The position numbers and the translations under genes were made by a program. A DNA stretch of 64,000 nucleotides from a virus: the IMG/VR virus record IMGVR_UViG_3300037859_000002, positions 1 through 64,000 of that record; one strand, written 5' to 3'. Below are positions 34,204 to 52,561 of this stretch, piece after piece (the first letter of the stretch is position 1; each line of letters starts with the position of its first letter). The notes beneath the pieces were generated by a model, which searched no databases, was not told the DNA's origin, and saw nothing but the letters and a program-made list of their open reading frames with translations.

Positions 34204-34254
34204 CCTTTCGCCGCTGCTGGCGGCTCATCAGCTCGCACGCGGTGTGCGAGAAGG
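34204..34254 (-). ncRNA. Hammerhead ribozyme type III
   Basis: CCT-T-CTCGCAC/GTGCGAG-CTGATGA-GCCGC/GCGGC-GAAA-GG. Confidence 0.8.
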
Positions 34255-34931
34255 CCCGGGGGCGGTGCCCCGGGGGCTCAGTCTTCGGCTGTTAGCGGTC
34301 GGTCCGCGTCATTCCAGGCACTCAGAGCGCTCATGAAGGCCCCGTGGGTCTCCAGGGCCCTGCCCTCGGGCTGGTGGCGCATCTCGCTCGCACCGCTCGA
34401 GAATTCTTCGACCAGGTCCGCCGACCAGGCGGCCTCTGCGTCCAAGACGCTCTGGTAGAGCGGATGCCGCTCTTTCGGCGCTTCCGGTCTGGCGTATTCC
34501 TCGGCTTCGAGTTGCTTCGCGATGACGAGTGTCTGCGCGGGCGTAACCTCAGAGCAGAGGTATTCATCCAGCGCGGTCTGGGCCAAGAGGCACGCCAAGC
34601 TGAGTGGGCACCGGGTCTCCACCGATCCCGGCAGGGATGCCTGCACGAGTTGGAGTGCCCGCGTGGCGCGCGCGACCTGCAGGAGGTCGTTGATGTCAGG
34701 ATCCAGGTTGCTCATTGAGGGAGCCCCAGATTCGCTTTGTCGACGAAGATGCGTACTTTCGGATCCAGCCGATACACATGCACGTCGAGCATGCCATCGT
34801 CCTGGCGGCGGAAACTGATCAGGCCGCCAAGGCCGGTCTTGCGATCGGTGAACTCAACGATGCGCTCTCTCGACTTGTCGGTGAAACTATCGGCCTGACA
34901 CTTCGTCAATACGAGAGGTCTTGGCATGGTC

Positions 34932-34992
34932 TTGCCTTTCGCGCGCCCGGTCTGGGGCGCTCATCAGCGCACATTTATATGTGCGAAGGCAA
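34932..34992 (-). ncRNA. Hammerhead ribozyme type III
   Basis: TTGCCT-T-CGCACAT/ATGTGCG-CTGATGA-stemII-GAAAGGCAA. Confidence 0.9.
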
Positions 34993-35587
34993 TGCCCCCA
35001 GGGCAAGGTCCCCGGGGGCATGGATCAGCGGGCCGGGATCTTGCCCTTGTGGGCCTCGACCCGTCGGCGGATCGTTGACGCAAGCTCCGCGTACTCGCGG
35101 TTCACGGTCGCGGTCGCGTCGTTCAGCACCTGGTCGTCGGTCGGGCACTGGATGCTCGCCGTCGCCGGGTTCTGCTCGAGATACTGCGCCAGGGACACCC
35201 GCTGCTCATAGGCCATGCAGGTCATGCTGGCCCAGATGAAGAGCCGGCCCAGCCCCTCAGGGAGCGGGGCCTCCAAGCCTGGTGCATACAGGGCGCAGCA
35301 GATCTCCGCGGGGGCGCAGATCCAGGGCCGGAACCCGTAAACGATTTCCAGCCGCTGCGCGCGCACCTGTTTCGGGATGAAGGGCGGAATGTCCTTCTCC
35401 CAGCCGCCGCCGGGCTGGATGATCACGGGCCCGGTGACGTAGTGCTGATCGGCCTTGCTGAGGCCGGCGATGCCCATGGCTTCGTTGAGCTGCAACAGGA
35501 AGGCGGCGCTCATGCCCATGTGGGCCATGGCGCTCTGCAGTCGCAGGACGTCCATCGACATCGGCGTCTGCTGTGGTTTCATCGGAG

Positions 35588-35659
35588 TGATCCTCATCAG
35601 CGCCGGCGGATCGCCGGCCGAGCTCGCGGCCGCACGCGGCGGCCGGAGCTTTCGGATCA
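35588..35659 (-). ncRNA. Hammerhead ribozyme type II
   Basis: TGATCC-GAAA-stemIII-TC-stemI-CTGATGA-GGATCA. Confidence 0.85.
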
Positions 35660-36031
35660 GTCTTCAACAGGCTCTTCGAGCAGTCGGTCCATCAGAGCGA
35701 GCTGCCGGGCCTTGGTCAGTTCGGAGGTGCGGTCATTTTCGATGTAGAACAAGGTCCGTGCCGCGGCCTCACTGATGCCAAAGAATACGGCCAGGGCCGT
35801 GTCCGTAGCGGTCCACCCATGAAGGGTAAGGAGCCGCTGCGGGGACAGCTTCAGTCCTTCGGCTTGAAGGACCGGATCCATGCCGCCGTGGCCGGCGATG
35901 CAAGCCACGGTGCCGCAAACGGATTGCCACTTGTTCATGTCGATCAACATGGCCGGCGTCTCGGCAATGATCTCGCGGAGGCGGGCGAGACGCTGCCGCG
36001 GCCTCAGGCTTGGAATGGTTCCACTTCCCAT
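35657..36031 (-). CDS. CGxxxCxxGH family protein, paralog 2
   Basis: CGTVACIAGHG.DPVLQAEGL. Confidence 0.75.
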   Translation of the reverse strand: MGSGTIPSLRPRQRLARLREIIAETPAMLIDMNKWQSVCGTVACIAGHGGMDPVLQAEGLKLSPQRLLTLHGWTATDTALAVFFGISEAAARTLFYIENDRTSELTKARQLALMDRLLEEPVED

Positions 36032-36035
36032 CGGG

Positions 36036-36107
36036 TGATCCTCTTCATGGGGATGATTCCCCGACCGTTCCCCCTGAGTCAAAGCCCAGGGGGCCGGTTT
36101 CGGATCA
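36036..36107 (-). ncRNA. Hammerhead-like type II (A3 variant)
   Basis: TGATCC-GAAA-stemIII-GTC-GGGGA/TCCCC-ATGAAGA-GGATCA. Confidence 0.7.
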
Positions 36108-36600
36108 GTAGCCATTGCCCACTTCGGTGACGTGGGCGTGCCGCACGTCGTTGGGGCTGAGCTCGACCGCCGCGCGGTCGCGCAGGTGGTCGAGCATATC
36201 GGCCCAGACGCGGCTGGACGGATCGTCCATGCCGGCCTCTGCCAGGTCGGCGGCCTTGACCCGGTCGGGAGCCTCGATCGTGGTGGTGAAGCGCAGGACC
36301 GTGGTGAGCGTGACATCGATGGTCACCTCGTGCCTGGTCTTTGTCGTCCCCGCCACGATCTGCGCGCACAGTGCCTCGAAATCGAGGCGGTCGAGCATCT
36401 CGTCCCCAGCCTGGTAGGCGCGAACGATGAGGACCCTGTTGTCGGACAGCAGGGTCGTCGGGACCGCGCCGGTCTTGGCCCTGAGATAGGCCGCGACCGG
36501 CGCCTCGGTTCCGTCGCTCATGCGCGCCAGGTAGGTCTTGAGGTCCATCGCCGACGGGCAGTTGCTCTCGTCGACGACGGTGACGTCGTAGTTCATGGGA

Positions 36601-50214: not shown

Positions 50215-50284
50215 GCTCCTCTTCAGGCCCGCGGGATTGCGGGCGACCGCCCCGCCCCGGTGTGGGGCGGGGGGTTTCGTCAGC
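50215..50284 (-). ncRNA. Hammerhead type II with weak stem II
   Basis: GAAA-stemIII-GTC-GCCCGC/GCGGGC-CTGAAGA. Confidence 0.65.
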
Positions 50285-50854
50285 GCGTCGTGGCCGTTTG
50301 CTGGGGCGCCATGGTGCGGACCAGTCGCTGGCGCAGGGCCTCGACCCTGTTCCAGGCCGTCCAGTCGGTGGCCTGGCTCTGGGTCGCCACCTGCTGACCG
50401 TAACTGGTCAGCGCCGTGATCAGCGTCAGCAGCTCGTCCTCGTCGAGGGCGATGTTCATGCGCGGGGCGCCGCCAGGTAGCGTGCGATCCGAACGGCCGA
50501 CTGCTCGTCCAGCCAGTCCAGGAGCTGGGCCTTCATCAGGTCCGCCACCGGGCCATCGTTGAGTTCGGGACGCTGCTCGCGCAGGCTTTCGGCCAAGCGG
50601 CGCCACGAGCTGGGCTGCAGGGTCAGGCCCTGCTCAGCGAGCGCGGCGCGAATGTCCGCGGTGCAAAGCAGGACGTGGCCCAGCCGGACCGCGAGTTCCT
50701 CGAGCAGGGCCCGGCCCTCCTCGATGGTGGGCTCGCGACCGAAGGTCGCGCACCAGATGCGCGCGCAGATTTCGGCGATGTCGGCCGCCCGATCGCGGAG
50801 CGTGCGCTCGGGCGCGGCCTCGAAGACGGATTGTTCCTCCATCGGAGTGGGTCC

Positions 50855-50919
50855 TCTCGTTTCGCGCCCACGAACCGGCGGGCGCTCGTCGGCGCCTCTC
50901 ACATGAGAGGCGAACGAGA
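50855..50919 (-). ncRNA. Hammerhead type III (C4 variant)
   Basis: TCTCGT-T-CGCCTCTC/GAGAGGCG-CCGACGA-stemII-GAAACGAGA. Confidence 0.75.
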
Positions 50920-51573
50920 TACACTTAAATGTGGTGAGCCGGGAGTCAAATGGAAAGGCCCCCCACCCGGAAAAGGGTAGGGGGCCTTGCGCGCGAGGGT
51001 CAGGCGCGGCGCATCTGGCGCAGACCCTCGCGGGTCGACCTGGCGCCGCCGCAGATGGCCCGATGGGCCACCGCGGCTGCGGCTCTGGTGCGCCGAAGCA
51101 TCTCCTGCTCGTCGAGCTTGATCTCGCCGGTCAGGCTGTCCTGCAGGTCCTGCAGGGTATCGCGGGCCGCGGCCAGCGCATCGCGCACATAATCGGGCTG
51201 CTTGGGCATGGTATGTGCTCCTGGCCCCGGCTGCCTCTTCGGCACAGGATGGGGGCCCACATCGCTGTGGATGCACGCCGCGGCTCCTTCCTCGCGGGAG
51301 GGGCGCGCGCGCGCATTTCGATCAGCCGCGCTCGGTGCGCGCGGTCCGGCTCGGATCATCCGGATCTGCGGCTTCGAAGGCGCGGTGGTCATAGGTCGTG
51401 GTCTCGCCCTGCTCGAGGTCCCAGTCGACGCCAAACTCATCATCGGCGGCGATCCTGACCGCCTCTTCGACGGTGCGGGCCATGACGATGCCCGTGTGAC
51501 AGAGACACTGGTCGACATAGCGGTGGACCACGAATTCTCGCTCCGGTGGGTCGGCGCTCATGCGCGCGTTCCT

Positions 51574-51629
51574 CCCTTTCGCCGGCGGCTGGCCGGCTCG
51601 TCAGCCCCCACCAGGTGGTGGGGAAAGGG
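51574..51629 (-). ncRNA. Hammerhead ribozyme type III
   Basis: CCCT-T-stemI-CTGACGA-GCCGGC/GCCGGC-GAAAGGG. Confidence 0.87.
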
Positions 51630-52161
51630 GCCGCCCCCCGCAGGGGGCGGTCGTCAGTCCCGTCGGTCGATCCAGTAGCGCGGCACCCGATGATCGGGTG
51701 GGAAGCCGAAGCTCCCATCCTGCTCGAGGGTGACCACGATGGTCTCGGGGGTCTCGATCGCGACGGTGTCGACCACGACGAGCTCGAACTGGAATGTCGT
51801 GTTCGTGCTGTCGGCGTCGGCGTAGCGGTCGCCCGCGAGGTCGATGACCGACCCCGGTGTGAGGTCGGCCACCCGAACCATTTCGGGCGCGATCATCCTG
51901 TGCGATCCCATCCTCCGGGATGGCCAGGACGTGGGGTGATCATCGTCACCCTGGGGCGTCGGCGCCGCCACTCGTGCAGCGCCAGCAGCCCGTAGAAGGT
52001 CGTGGCCGCGGCGCCTGTCGTCAGCGCCGCGGCCCACATGATCTGCTGCACCGTCGGGTCGTCCTCGAAGATGAGGAACACGCCGGTCGCGGCAAAGATC
52101 ACGCCGGCGACTCCGCTGATGCCCAGCAGGGCAAAGCCGAGAAGTCGGTACATGGGTCGTT

Positions 52162-52219
52162 CCCTTTCGCCGGCATGCTGGCCGGCTCATCAGTCCGCCC
52201 CATCAGGGAGCGGAAAGGG
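52162..52219 (-). ncRNA. Hammerhead ribozyme type III
   Basis: CCCT-T-TCCGCTCC/GGGGCGGA-CTGATGA-GCCGGC/GCCGGC-GAAAGGG. Confidence 0.9.
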
Positions 52220-52506
52220 CGACGCGCCCGCCCCAGCCTTGGGGCCAGAGCGGGCGCGCGTCGTTGGTTTCAGGCCGCCAGGGCTTCGTCAGAGGGCGGG
52301 GTCGCCCTGCTGGACTTGCGCCACTCGTAGACCGCACCTGCCACGCAGGTGACGGCCATCAGGGCGTTGACCGCGATGTTGAGGCCCGGTACCAACATGG
52401 TGCCCGCGCGCATCATCGGGAGCCAGGCAATGGCCAGGCCGGTGAAGCCCACCGCCGAAGCGGCGTAGATGCGGGCGTTCATTTTGTTGCTGGTCATGAT
52501 GTGTTC

Positions 52507-52561
52507 CCCTTTCGCCGCAGACTGGCGGCTCATCAGGCCCCACACGCTGTGGGGTCGAGGG
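52507..52561 (-). ncRNA. Hammerhead ribozyme type III
   Basis: CCCT-C-stemI-CTGATGA-GCCGC/GCGGC-GAAAGGG. Confidence 0.87.

Follow-up and report, generated by a model that had tools for sequence, protein, structure and literature searches.

Why does a phage place hammerhead-like ribozymes between its small genes so that they overlap both the upstream stop codon and the downstream Shine-Dalgarno (SD) sequence, and does self-cleavage act on translation at these junctions? The window in which we addressed this question comprises 64,000 nt (positions 1 to 64,000 of IMG/VR record IMGVR_UViG_3300037859_000002) and belongs to a single 111,211-nt phage contig. Matches to terminase, portal, primase-helicase, YqaJ and DUF932 identify a tailed phage, from an algae-associated metagenome, and the closest relatives of its terminase are terminases from phages of Alphaproteobacteria.

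Hammerhead-like motifs in the arrays of small genes

Within the window we counted 21 hammerhead-like motifs, of which 11 are type II and 10 type III; every one is encoded on the minus strand. Nine further copies lie elsewhere on the contig, bringing the total to 30 (18 type II, 12 type III), with no type I hammerhead on the contig. A descriptor search of the minus strand of the contig picks up 27 of these 30 curated copies, and the same search of the plus strand found no motif with an open helix of at least 3 bp. All Rfam scores are below gathering, and the Rfam search reported none of the type III copies. Small genes, most of them lacking known relatives, form three arrays on the minus strand of the contig and are joined by standard junction cassettes. 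The layout, with hammerheads between small early genes filling nearly all gaps, is real. The span 34204-52561, to which the earlier note referred, is bounded by two type III copies, namely by the 3' end of 34204-34254 and the 5' end of 52507-52561. The window copies are:

52848-52908, minus: type III-like leader; core CUGACGA, C15.1-G16.1, GAAC replacing GAAA; separate SD AGGAG; start 52825; predicted cut after A52903
52507-52561, minus: type III; core CUGAUGA; stem III CCCU/AGGG; SD GAAAGGGGA; ATG 52497; extra hairpin 52563-52587; predicted cut after C52557
52162-52219, minus: type III; core CUGAUGA; stem III CCCU/AGGG; ATG 52153; extra hairpin 52222-52259; predicted cut after U52215
51574-51629, minus: type III; core CUGACGA; stem III CCCU/AGGG; SD AAAGGGAGGA; ATG 51561; extra hairpin 51631-51650
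51231-51324, minus: type II; variant core CCGAAGA (U4C); upstream TGA in 5' strand (TGATC); an exception, with separate SD AGGAG and ATG 51209, 26 nt past the core
50855-50919, minus: type III leader; variant core CCGACGA; stem III UCUCGU/ACGAGA; SD GAGAGGA starting within stem III; ATG 50842; terminator-like hairpin 50959-50977 and palindrome 50920-50933 ahead of it
50215-50283, minus: type II; core CUGAAGA; upstream TGA in 5' strand (CUGAC); irregular stem II; SD GAGGAGC; ATG 50208; Rfam Hammerhead_II 22.7 bits
49758-49830, minus: type II; core CUGAAGA; stem II UGAUCC/GGAUCA (6 bp), its UGA being the upstream stop; ATG 49752; predicted cut after C49791
49191-49262, minus: type II; core CUGAAGA; UGAUCC/GGAACC (3 bp, GGA/UCC); stop in 5' strand; ATG 49184
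48757-48827, minus: type II; stem II UGAUCC/GGAUCA (6 bp); ATG 48750; 48755-48830 (76 nt) matches contig 109623-109698 at 100% identity, but with unrelated flanks
48440-48510, minus: type II; UGAUCC/GGAACA; ATG 48431; top Rfam Hammerhead_II match (31 bits, gathering 37)
47921-47976, minus: type III; core CUGAAGA; stem III UUCCU/AGGGA; ATG 47910; extra hairpin 47977-47999
47316-47378, minus: type III; core CUGACGA; stem III GCGCU/AGCGC; ATG 47301; an exception, with SD AAGGAG immediately 3' of stem III
46459-46514, minus: type III; variant core UUGAAGA (C3U); past the final gene of the array, with no same-strand gene downstream
37607-37661, minus: type II leader without upstream gene; variant core CCGAUGA; stem II GUGACC/GGUCAC (6 bp); SD GAGG; ATG 37604
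37373-37446, minus: degenerate type II-like; core UUGACAAGA; stop 8 nt before GAAA; GAGGA ahead of ATG 37371
36600-36670, minus: type II; variant core CAGAGGA (U4A); stem II GUGAGC/GCUCAU; SD GAGGAG; ATG 36596
36036-36107, minus: type II; variant core AUGAAGA (C3A); intact 6-bp UGAUCC/GGAUCA; ATG 36031; 95% identical to contig 107415-107496
35588-35659, minus: type II; core CUGAUGA; stem II UGAUCC/GGAUCA (6 bp); ATG 35582
34932-34992, minus: type III; core CUGAUGA; stem III UUGCCU/AGGCAA; stem I made by the recurrent palindrome CACATATAAATGTG; ATG 34927; extra hairpin 34993-35020
34204-34254, minus: type III; core CUGAUGA; stem III CCU/AGG; SD GAAAGGGA; ATG 34193; extra hairpin 34255-34274

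A weak Rfam hit to Twister-sister at 37373-37446 (22.5 bits, E 0.95) was judged to be chance. The copy at 36036-36107 contains a promoter-like TTGACT-18-AATCAT.

Stop codons and SD sequences within the ribozymes

The earlier note had claimed that the 5' strand of type II stem II usually carries the upstream stop codon and pairs with the downstream SD, and both claims hold. In 9 of the 11 window copies, the 6 nt preceding GAAA include the in-frame TGA of the upstream gene (TGATCC in six, TGATC, TGAC and TGAGC in the others); the remaining two are the copy with TGA 8 nt before GAAA and the leader. Across the contig, the UGA begins 4-8 nt before GAAA in 17 of 18 type II copies; it lies 4-6 nt before GAAA and inside the 5' strand of stem II in 16, and abuts that strand in the 17th. 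The exclusive use of TGA at these junctions is only mildly unusual, because TGA terminates 78% of contig genes. The core is followed by GAGGA in 9 of the 11 window copies, and in 10 of the 11 the ATG lies 7-14 nt past the core. The full 6-bp TGATCC/GGATCA helix forms in four window copies and other 6-bp helices (GUGACC/GGUCAC, GUGAGC/GCUCAU) in one copy each; two copies have the 3-bp GGA/UCC pairing alone, and three pair poorly.

For type III, the proposal that in many copies the SD is the 3' strand of stem III likewise stands: GAAAGGG is paired with CCCU, UUCCU or CCU in 5 of the 10 window copies, and AGGCAA/UUGCCU and ACGAGA/UCUCGU occur once each. The type III stop codon lies 48-110 nt upstream of the core, with a strong hairpin in between; these extra hairpins adjoin stem III at 0-2 nt and have energies of -14 to -36 kcal/mol. 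In the window, the SD is outside the ribozyme in the type III copies 47316-47378 and 52848-52908 and in the type II copy 51231-51324.

The gaps in two arrays are of three kinds: overlaps (-4 or -17 nt), gaps of 70-76 nt with a type II copy, and gaps of 84-157 nt occupied by type III (in one case by the long type II copy 51231-51324), usually plus an extra hairpin. Since the 70-76 nt gaps are exactly ribozyme-sized, a second SD cannot fit. The start codon lies at most 12 nt from the open helix in 25 of the 29 copies that precede a gene, although, with paralogous copies that have in part been homogenised (94-100% identity), such layout counts are not independent; the layout may descend from one or two ancestral cassettes. 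In these 25 copies, the sole SD-like sequence is either GAGGA, made up of core G8-A9 and stem II, or GAAAGGG, made up of core and stem III. Its predicted strength (median -7.6 kcal/mol; other genes, -7.1) and its distance from the start codon (3-10 nt) are normal. As the earlier note had stated, the strand that pairs with the SD stays on the upstream cleavage product in both topologies, which follows from hammerhead topology.

Conservation and core variants

By position, G10.1-C11.1 and A15.1-U16.1 are each present in 29 of the 30 copies, and N17 is never G. Every stem position shows several Watson-Crick pair types, and all three stems covary; stem II of 36600-36670 (UGAGC/GCUCA plus a terminal G-U), for example, differs from UGAUCC/GGAUCA by compensatory change. 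For the 6-bp type II copies (among them 48757-48827 and 35588-35659) and for 52162-52219, MFE folding yields the hammerhead junction with paired SD. Ten of the 30 copies keep the layout with a non-consensus core (C3A in three, C3U in one, U4C in three, U4A in one, one degenerate and one with C15.1), and some may be slow or dead.

Comparison with known systems

The general kind of arrangement is known. Clustered hammerheads flank single genes in prophages of Agrobacterium tumefaciens, Azorhizobium caulinodans and Clostridium scindens; they cleave in vitro and in vivo, and processing of long transcripts has been proposed as their job (Perreault et al., 2011, PMC3088659). Common to these prophages and the present phage are several type II and III copies that share a strand and are interspersed with small phage genes whose functions are diverse or unknown, natural core variants, and the proposed cutting of long transcripts into single-gene mRNAs. 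The present phage differs in having 30 copies in one 111-kb genome, all below Rfam gathering, with stop codon and SD built in, whereas the text of PMC3088659 contains no occurrence of Shine-Dalgarno sequences, ribosome binding or stop codons. The embedding of both elements is a compact variant of the known arrangement, and we found no published description of it.

Start codons lie a median of 25 nt away in 79 hammerheads on other viral contigs, against 8 nt here; only 14 of the 79 have a start within 12 nt of the helix, and most have a separate AGGAGG. The uncultured phage L074 (IMGVR_UViG_3300020577_004875) resembles ours in that it has eight type II hammerheads in 10 kb on one strand, each beginning 2-4 nt after a UGA stop and ahead of a gene. 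However, its hammerheads are followed by a separate strong AAGGAGG 10-25 nt past the ribozyme, in place of which the present phage has only the GAGGA of core and stem II.

Engineered switches share the principle that the SD belongs to a ribozyme helix and that its partner strand leaves on the other cleavage product. In E. coli, an active twister with the SD in a stem raised reporter output 5- to about 100-fold over the inactive one (Felletti et al., 2016, PMC5052635, which tested twister designs and cites hammerhead designs with masked SD). Such switches are artificial and usually have an added aptamer and a designed anti-SD extension, whereas the present layout is natural, has no aptamer and a helix of just 3-6 bp. 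In fungal and plant RNA viruses, self-cleaving ribozymes are needed for translation initiation (bioRxiv 10.1101/2024.05.16.594327). In these viruses, cleavage by a viral 5'-UTR hammerhead is required for translation of the downstream ORF, but initiation is eukaryotic and cap-independent, the ribozymes are of type I in RNA viruses, and neither SD-anti-SD logic nor operon junctions are involved.

Does cleavage control translation?

The earlier note had further suggested that self-cleavage, or a terminating ribosome, acts as a translational ON switch or timer for each gene. The anatomy behind this idea is sound: the cleavage products are joined by a single helix, whose 3' strand is the SD and whose 5' strand, in type II, contains the upstream stop codon. 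A cleavage-driven ON switch is plausible and in keeping with synthetic ribozyme switches. A strong switch or timer is less so, given the 3-6 bp helix, the variant cores, the four copies with a separate SD, and a predicted probability of unpaired SD (nearest-neighbour model) that rises only from 0.45 in the uncut to 0.51 in the cleaved RNA. The open helix (duplex energy -1 to -8 kcal/mol) is no more stable than the predicted pairing between SD and 16S tail (-6 to -12 kcal/mol), and contiguous stem II is just 1-3 bp in about eight type II copies. These values also suit pure compaction, in which the ribozymes merely process and stabilise transcripts and the overlap with stop and SD is a by-product of the squeeze into 70-76 nt; the open helix would then be too weak to affect 30S binding, and cleavage would therefore leave initiation unchanged. 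The separate SD 10-25 nt downstream in most other phage hammerheads, as in L074, the four copies of the present phage that likewise have one, and the occurrence of ribozyme-abutting stops in those other phages speak for compaction as well. However, G8 and A9 are part of the catalytic core of the folded hammerhead, which nearest-neighbour models ignore, so masking could exceed the computed value. Moreover, a few extra nucleotides would relieve harmful masking, yet the overlap is kept in 25 of 29 copies, and engineered ribozymes with SD in a stem do show 5- to 100-fold effects (PMC5052635). On balance, we regard compaction alone as somewhat unlikely.

The route by a terminating ribosome is possible in type II only, given the distant type III stop behind its strong hairpin. 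There, a ribosome terminating at the UGA would melt stem II, transiently free the downstream SD and block ribozyme folding, so that cleavage would be a readout of upstream translation or be under its control; dead-core copies with intact stem II would be pure coupling devices. A ribosome at a stop codon should cover roughly 12 nt downstream, which here would take in the entire 5' strand, GAAA and the first part of stem III. The position of the stop in the 16 type II copies, the perfect 6-bp stem II of the C3A copy 36036-36107, and the classical coupling overlaps of 4 or 17 nt at junctions without ribozyme all agree with such cross-talk. But it is inapplicable to the 12 type III and the leader copies, simple compaction equally predicts the position of the stop, and the TGA stops are what most contig genes have anyway; we consider it improbable. 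Least credible, and in our view very unlikely, is a role at the DNA level, in which the cassettes serve as conserved linkers for gene shuffling or duplication by homologous recombination and ribozyme activity is secondary or decaying. Cassettes of 76-82 nt whose neighbouring genes are unrelated are indeed 94-100% identical in arrays 60 kb from each other, while adjacent paralogous genes are only about 70% identical, and one third of the cores are non-consensus. Yet compensatory changes preserve the pairing of all three stems across diverged copies, the strict single-strand orientation suits a role in RNA, and recombination between repeats may be an effect of their being there and not what they are for.

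A model for the cassettes

From the layout, the covariation and the contrast with other phage hammerheads, we infer that the ribozymes cleave, that the embedded SD is used and that translation may be affected, and propose the following model, to which we assign a probability of roughly 0.55. Long transcripts would be cut by the ribozymes during synthesis. Type II cassettes run from stop codon through hammerhead, SD and short spacer to start codon, and type III cassettes have the same order plus a strong hairpin between stop and ribozyme. The upstream piece would retain the stop codon and terminate in a hairpin, which is stem III for type II cassettes and the extra hairpin for type III, and the downstream piece would begin with a 5'-OH and the stem I hairpin. 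The cassette is so compressed that the SD falls inside the ribozyme (G8, A9 and 10.1-10.3 in type II, GAAA and 15.1-15.4 in type III), and folded uncut ribozyme and bound 30S subunit would therefore be mutually exclusive. Joined by the open helix alone, the cut products should separate and leave the SD permanently free. The three leader copies (52848-52908, 50855-50919 and 37607-37661) cannot separate cistrons and are consistent with a function in setting the 5' end and the leader. We expect a modest boost or a short delay of translation rather than a strict gate. By cutting each cassette and releasing its SD, the phage would thus give every gene the same short insulated leader, and its translation would be independent of the gene upstream.

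Hammerhead motifs in the small-gene arrays

At gathering thresholds, Rfam reports only tRNAs in the window. Permissive E-values add three Hammerhead_II matches on the minus strand, at 31, 22.7 and 19 bits against a gathering threshold of 37, while type III copies are not reported by Rfam at E-values up to 10. A scan for the CUGANGA core revealed a strong minus-strand surplus between 34.2 and 52.5 kb. When that strand was read through, the window proved to contain 21 hammerhead-like motifs, and nine further ones lie at 107-110.8 kb of the contig. Of these 30 copies, 18 belong to type II and 12 to type III; type I copies were not found. 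A descriptor search, requiring a core with at most one change at C3 or U4, closed hairpins, GAAA and a non-G residue at N17, recovered 27 of the 30 copies on the minus strand. On the plus strand, it gave no match with an open helix (the helix that joins both cleavage products, stem II in type II and stem III in type III) of at least 3 bp. Descriptor matches at 93267, 91818, 62991 and 31961 lie inside coding sequence and were rejected as false positives, and a weak Twister-sister match at 37394-37466 coincides with a degenerate copy and was taken as chance.

The conserved core (C3-U4-G5-A6-N7-G8-A9 with G12-A13-A14) is exact in 20 of the 30 copies, 13 of the 21 in the window. The other ten have one deviation each: C3A (three copies), C3U, U4C (three copies), U4A, C15.1-G16.1 and one degenerate core. 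As MAFFT alignments (A2-A5) misplaced the variable hairpins, no covariance model was built, and pairs were counted by register from the core instead. Over the 30 copies, G10.1-C11.1 and A15.1-U16.1 are each present in 29, and positions in stems I, II and III show two to five canonical pair types, with several Watson-Crick types at each position. At the cleavage site, every copy has C, U or A as N17, and none has G. Stem II varies by compensatory changes that leave the stop codon in place (UGAUCC/GGAUCA, UGACC/GGUCA, UGAGC/GCUCA, GUGACC/GGUCAC). By these defining features the 30 motifs are hammerheads (Rfam clan CL00010), with self-cleavage predicted from sequence. Standard Rfam annotation would overlook every one of them.

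Stop codon and predicted ribosome site within the ribozyme

The 5' strand of stem II in type II copies had been said in the earlier note usually to contain the upstream stop codon, and this is borne out: an in-frame TGA begins 4-6 nt before GAAA in 16 of 18 copies, and the upstream ORFs are coding-like. Stop-bearing strands read UGAUCC, UGACC, UGAGC or UGAC; of the remaining two copies, one has its TGA 8 nt before GAAA and the other is a leader without an upstream gene. The placement of the downstream Shine-Dalgarno sequence (SD) in the same helix also stands, since the best match to the 16S rRNA tail, AAGAGGA(U/G/A), consists of core residues G8-A9 and positions 10.1-10.3, with a start codon 7-14 nt past the core in 15 of 18 copies. 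For type III, the corresponding claim, made for many copies, that the SD is the 3' strand of stem III agrees with 7 of 12 copies (five in the window), in which the best SD match is GAAAGGG(A/G) and its GGG pairs with CC(C)U. The start codon lies 9-18 nt past GAAA in 10 of 11 type III cases. Taking both topologies together, 25 of the 29 copies that precede a gene have the SD in a ribozyme helix and the strand that pairs with it on the other cleavage product, as the earlier note had proposed. A separate SD is found in 51231-51324, 47316-47378, 52848-52908 and the copy with its core at 109185, and in 50855-50919 the SD merely begins within the stem. The embedded SDs are of ordinary predicted strength, with a median of -7.6 kcal/mol where the remaining genes on the contig have -7.1, and their spacers are 3-10 nt long.

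The stem II 3' strand GGAUCA (e.g. in 49758-49830) is identical to what we take to be the conserved GGAUCA before CCUCC at the 3' end of 16S rRNA. In consequence UGAUCC, the strand with the stop, looks like the distal end of an extended SD, a likeness that may be coincidental.

Each non-overlapping junction of both window arrays, the minus-strand runs of small genes, contains a hammerhead. Gene gaps fall into three classes: overlaps (-4 or -17 nt), gaps of 70-76 nt that consist of a type II copy alone, and gaps of 84-157 nt. The last class is occupied by type III copies or, in one case, by the long type II copy 51231-51324, and most of these gaps also contain a strong hairpin. That hairpin (-14 to -36 kcal/mol) lies 0-2 nt 5' of each junction type III copy; it would stack on the short stem III and form the 3' end of the upstream product. 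Since types II and III alone occur, the downstream product would in turn always begin with a hairpin.

Three copies, 52848-52908, 50855-50919 and 37607-37661, are leaders and not junctions, and 50855-50919 directly follows a terminator-like hairpin and a regulatory-looking palindrome. By their position they cannot serve the separation of cistrons; their role fits the provision of the same processed 5' end on every mRNA.

The cassettes (76-82 nt, with the stop codon at one end and the start codon just past the other) are 94-100% identical across arrays 60 kb apart, with unrelated flanks, and the paralogous genes beside near-identical cassettes are only about 70% identical. The cassettes thus behave as units that can stand in for one another, their likeness being maintained by recombination or selection.

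The phage and its array proteins

The window makes up the first 64 kb of a single viral contig of 111,211 nt and has a G+C content of 64-71%. Its products include a large terminase, a portal protein, a primase-helicase of the Toprim/DnaB kind, an exonuclease (YqaJ), and proteins with DUF932 and DUF5131. With terminases from Rhizobium, Acetobacter and Paracoccus phages, the terminase shares about 40% identity. A single sequencing run was listed for the stretch, its DNA source, which bears the label algae metagenome; no RNA run was listed. Blastn with the left array as query gave no match among 50,697 phage records, and neither did a search of IMG/VR with the primase-helicase. Among 20 array proteins compared with Pfam and PHROGs, there is a weak DUF3846 match and a RusA-like or clamp-like match for 46549-47301; the rest have no family. 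One paralogous family of about 120 residues (A1) has the following members:

48825-49184, minus strand: paralogous protein of about 120 aa
49828-50208, minus strand: paralogous protein of about 120 aa
35657-36031, minus strand: paralogous protein of about 120 aa
33825-34193, minus strand: paralogous protein of about 120 aa
contig ~109693-110076: paralogous protein of about 120 aa

The family shares a conserved CG(T/S)xxC(I/V)xGH ... Q(A/N)EGL ... FFG motif, has no match in Pfam or PHROG, and has a hammerhead directly ahead of every member. Its relatives in viral and metagenome contigs (L001, L257-L263) are distant, and no hammerheads were found with them.

Other elements of the window

The palindrome CACAT-N4-ATGTG (CACATNTAAATGTG, up to two mismatches) gives 23 strand-matches where 0.15 are expected. 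It occupies 14 sites in 2903-62711, among them:

7525-7538: palindrome CACAT-N4-ATGTG
22629-22642: palindrome CACAT-N4-ATGTG
34970-34983: palindrome CACAT-N4-ATGTG
37921-37934: palindrome CACAT-N4-ATGTG
50920-50933: palindrome CACAT-N4-ATGTG
55319-55332: palindrome CACAT-N4-ATGTG

As most placed sites are intergenic or at operon starts, it is probably an operator or a phage promoter element. In hammerhead 34932-34992 a copy of the palindrome serves as stem I, and another lies directly 5' of the leader copy 50855-50919. The three C3A copies, with core AUGAAGA, contain a promoter-like TTGACT-18-AATCAT formed by the loops of stems III and I:

36053-36082, minus strand: promoter-like element within hammerhead 36036-36107
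contig 107423-107494: another C3A copy with this element
contig 110082-110153: another C3A copy with this element

These copies might double as internal promoters, with transcripts starting just 5' of the embedded GAGGA.

Dense short direct repeats with a period of about 36 nt (68-78% identical) at 41476-42085 and 43146-43634 flank and enter the ORFs 41418-42212 and 42230-43186, the latter with a faint match to IS110-type transposases. Tandem or direct repeats of about 72-nt units, 74-84% identical, lie at 25934-26370, at the end of gene 25137-25958. On the plus strand, 54076-54181 resembles the Rfam family YrlA (Y RNA-like) at 34.6 bits, below the threshold of 69, and includes a tRNA-like module; it is part of a non-coding stretch ahead of two tRNA genes (54604 and 55233). 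At 38255-38375 an inverted repeat that is long, GC-rich and nearly perfect, and that gives spurious miRNA matches on both strands, lies within the HTH_36 gene 37945-38991 beside the primase-helicase; it could be a replication origin inside an initiator gene. About 650 nt without a convincing gene (45903-46548) separate convergent operons, and as the minus strand enters this stretch just past the trailing hammerhead 46459-46514, a processed non-coding RNA is possible there.

Comparison with other viral hammerheads

Comparator viral contigs were fetched with a pattern that fixes core and stem II only and is therefore neutral on the sequence past the ribozyme. We classified 92 non-redundant hammerheads in them, taking as the gap the distance between the point where the open helix ends and the start codon that follows. 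A start is nearby in 79 of these comparators; their gaps have a median of 25 nt and are no longer than 12 nt in 14, and the SD overlaps the open helix in about 10. In this phage, by contrast, the median gap is 8 nt, and 25 of 29 copies have 12 nt or less (Fisher p = 8e-11, Mann-Whitney p = 3e-8; the copies here are paralogous and hence non-independent).

In the contig L074 (IMGVR_UViG_3300020577_004875), a 10-kb stretch contains eight type II hammerheads, all of which start 2-4 nt past a UGA stop, but unlike this phage it has a separate AAGGAGG 10-25 nt 3' of each ribozyme. A stop codon abutting the ribozyme is thus common, and the embedded SD is the derived, compressed feature. Embedded SDs occur sporadically elsewhere, in the contigs L009 and L053 (type I) and L059, L086 and L050/L063 (type III), which makes the layout a recurrent minority form. 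The cassette pattern TGATCCGAAA..CTGANGAGGA had 16 and at least 120 matches in viral and genome contigs, respectively, a count close to the chance estimate for 19 fixed bases, and these were rejected as true cassettes. Three alone fold as hammerheads (L127, L132 and L147), none with an adjacent start codon.

Discussion

Our data suggest a model in which putative self-cleaving junction cassettes would cut early transcripts into single-gene mRNAs with hairpin-capped ends. Cutting of this kind was proposed in 2011 for prophage hammerheads (PMC3088659). In the phage described here, the cassettes would have been compressed until the ribosome site became the last strand of the ribozyme, so that ribozyme folding and ribosome binding would be mutually exclusive. 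Cleavage would then settle the competition between the two irreversibly, in favour of translation.

The gain in translation on cleavage may be large, as for a gate, small, as for a short delay, or nil, if the layout is pure compaction. The idea of SD release is mechanistically sound, since engineered constructs with like logic give 5- to 100-fold effects (PMC5052635). Where stem II has 6 bp, and in 52162-52219, the minimum free energy fold (z -2.7 to -4.5) is the hammerhead three-way junction with the SD strand paired. The open helices are short all the same, and their duplex energies range from -1.1 kcal/mol (GGA/UCC) to -8.1 (GUGACC/GGUCAC), with -4.1 for CCCU/AGGG. By partition function, the probability that the SD is unpaired averages 0.45 in the precursor and only slightly more, 0.51, in the 3' product (Wilcoxon p = 0.004), and a strict gate is not supported by this calculation. 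In the folded hammerhead, the catalytic core encloses G8 and A9. Nearest-neighbour models ignore this tertiary fold, so actual masking could exceed the computed value. For type II, a pseudoknot of loop I with the start-codon region is not supported as a general feature: complementarity exceeds shuffles in 3 of 15 copies (49758-49830 and contig 108010-108082 and 107000-107070, where a stem I loop with CAUC is complementary to GAUG, AUGG and GAUGA), and the other 12 are within shuffle range. Stems I-III are plain hairpins with loops of 3-9 nt, and neither riboswitch families in the arrays nor a ligand-sensing aptamer on the ribozymes were detected.

Release by a terminating ribosome, which the earlier note had offered for each gene, could apply to type II only. 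There, the stop lies in or adjoins the 5' strand of stem II in 17 of 18 copies, and the route is reasonable because the inferred footprint would span that strand, GAAA and the start of stem III. It is lost for type III, whose stops lie 48-110 nt upstream behind a hairpin, and for the leaders. We consider it possible, with a probability of roughly 0.3, that ribozyme-gated translation is a natural, protein-free operon architecture, in which the ribosome site of each early gene would be locked in a hammerhead and freed only by cleavage or, in type II, by a ribosome that terminates on the gene before it.

Phage hammerhead clusters are already known, and clustered prophage hammerheads (Perreault 2011) share with this phage the coding-strand position flanking single genes or short blocks. 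SD- and stop-related terms occur nowhere in the text of PMC3088659, and no paper in the literature searched describes natural hammerheads into which an SD or a stop codon is built. Judged from sequence, the embedded SD and stop layout is what appears to be new. The arrangement of helix and partner strand is common to this phage and to engineered SD-masking ribozyme switches, whereas the phage has no aptamer. Such switches, like ribozyme insulators, are widely used synthetic parts, and the cassettes would be a natural counterpart of both.

The job of hundreds of bacterial and phage hammerheads has been unsettled since 2011, and a 2019 review still asked for further work (PMC6765202). The main value of the present layout is that phage hammerhead function becomes directly testable: if ribozyme and ribosome site are one, a dead core is predicted to reduce downstream translation at an equal mRNA level. 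The 30 copies, with two topologies, core variants, separate-SD controls, and leader and inter-gene positions, make up an unusually rich natural test set. Should gating hold true, the natural core variants would be slower timers or pure coupling devices, and the order, insulation and yield of about 25 genes would be programmed by interchangeable 70-nt cassettes.
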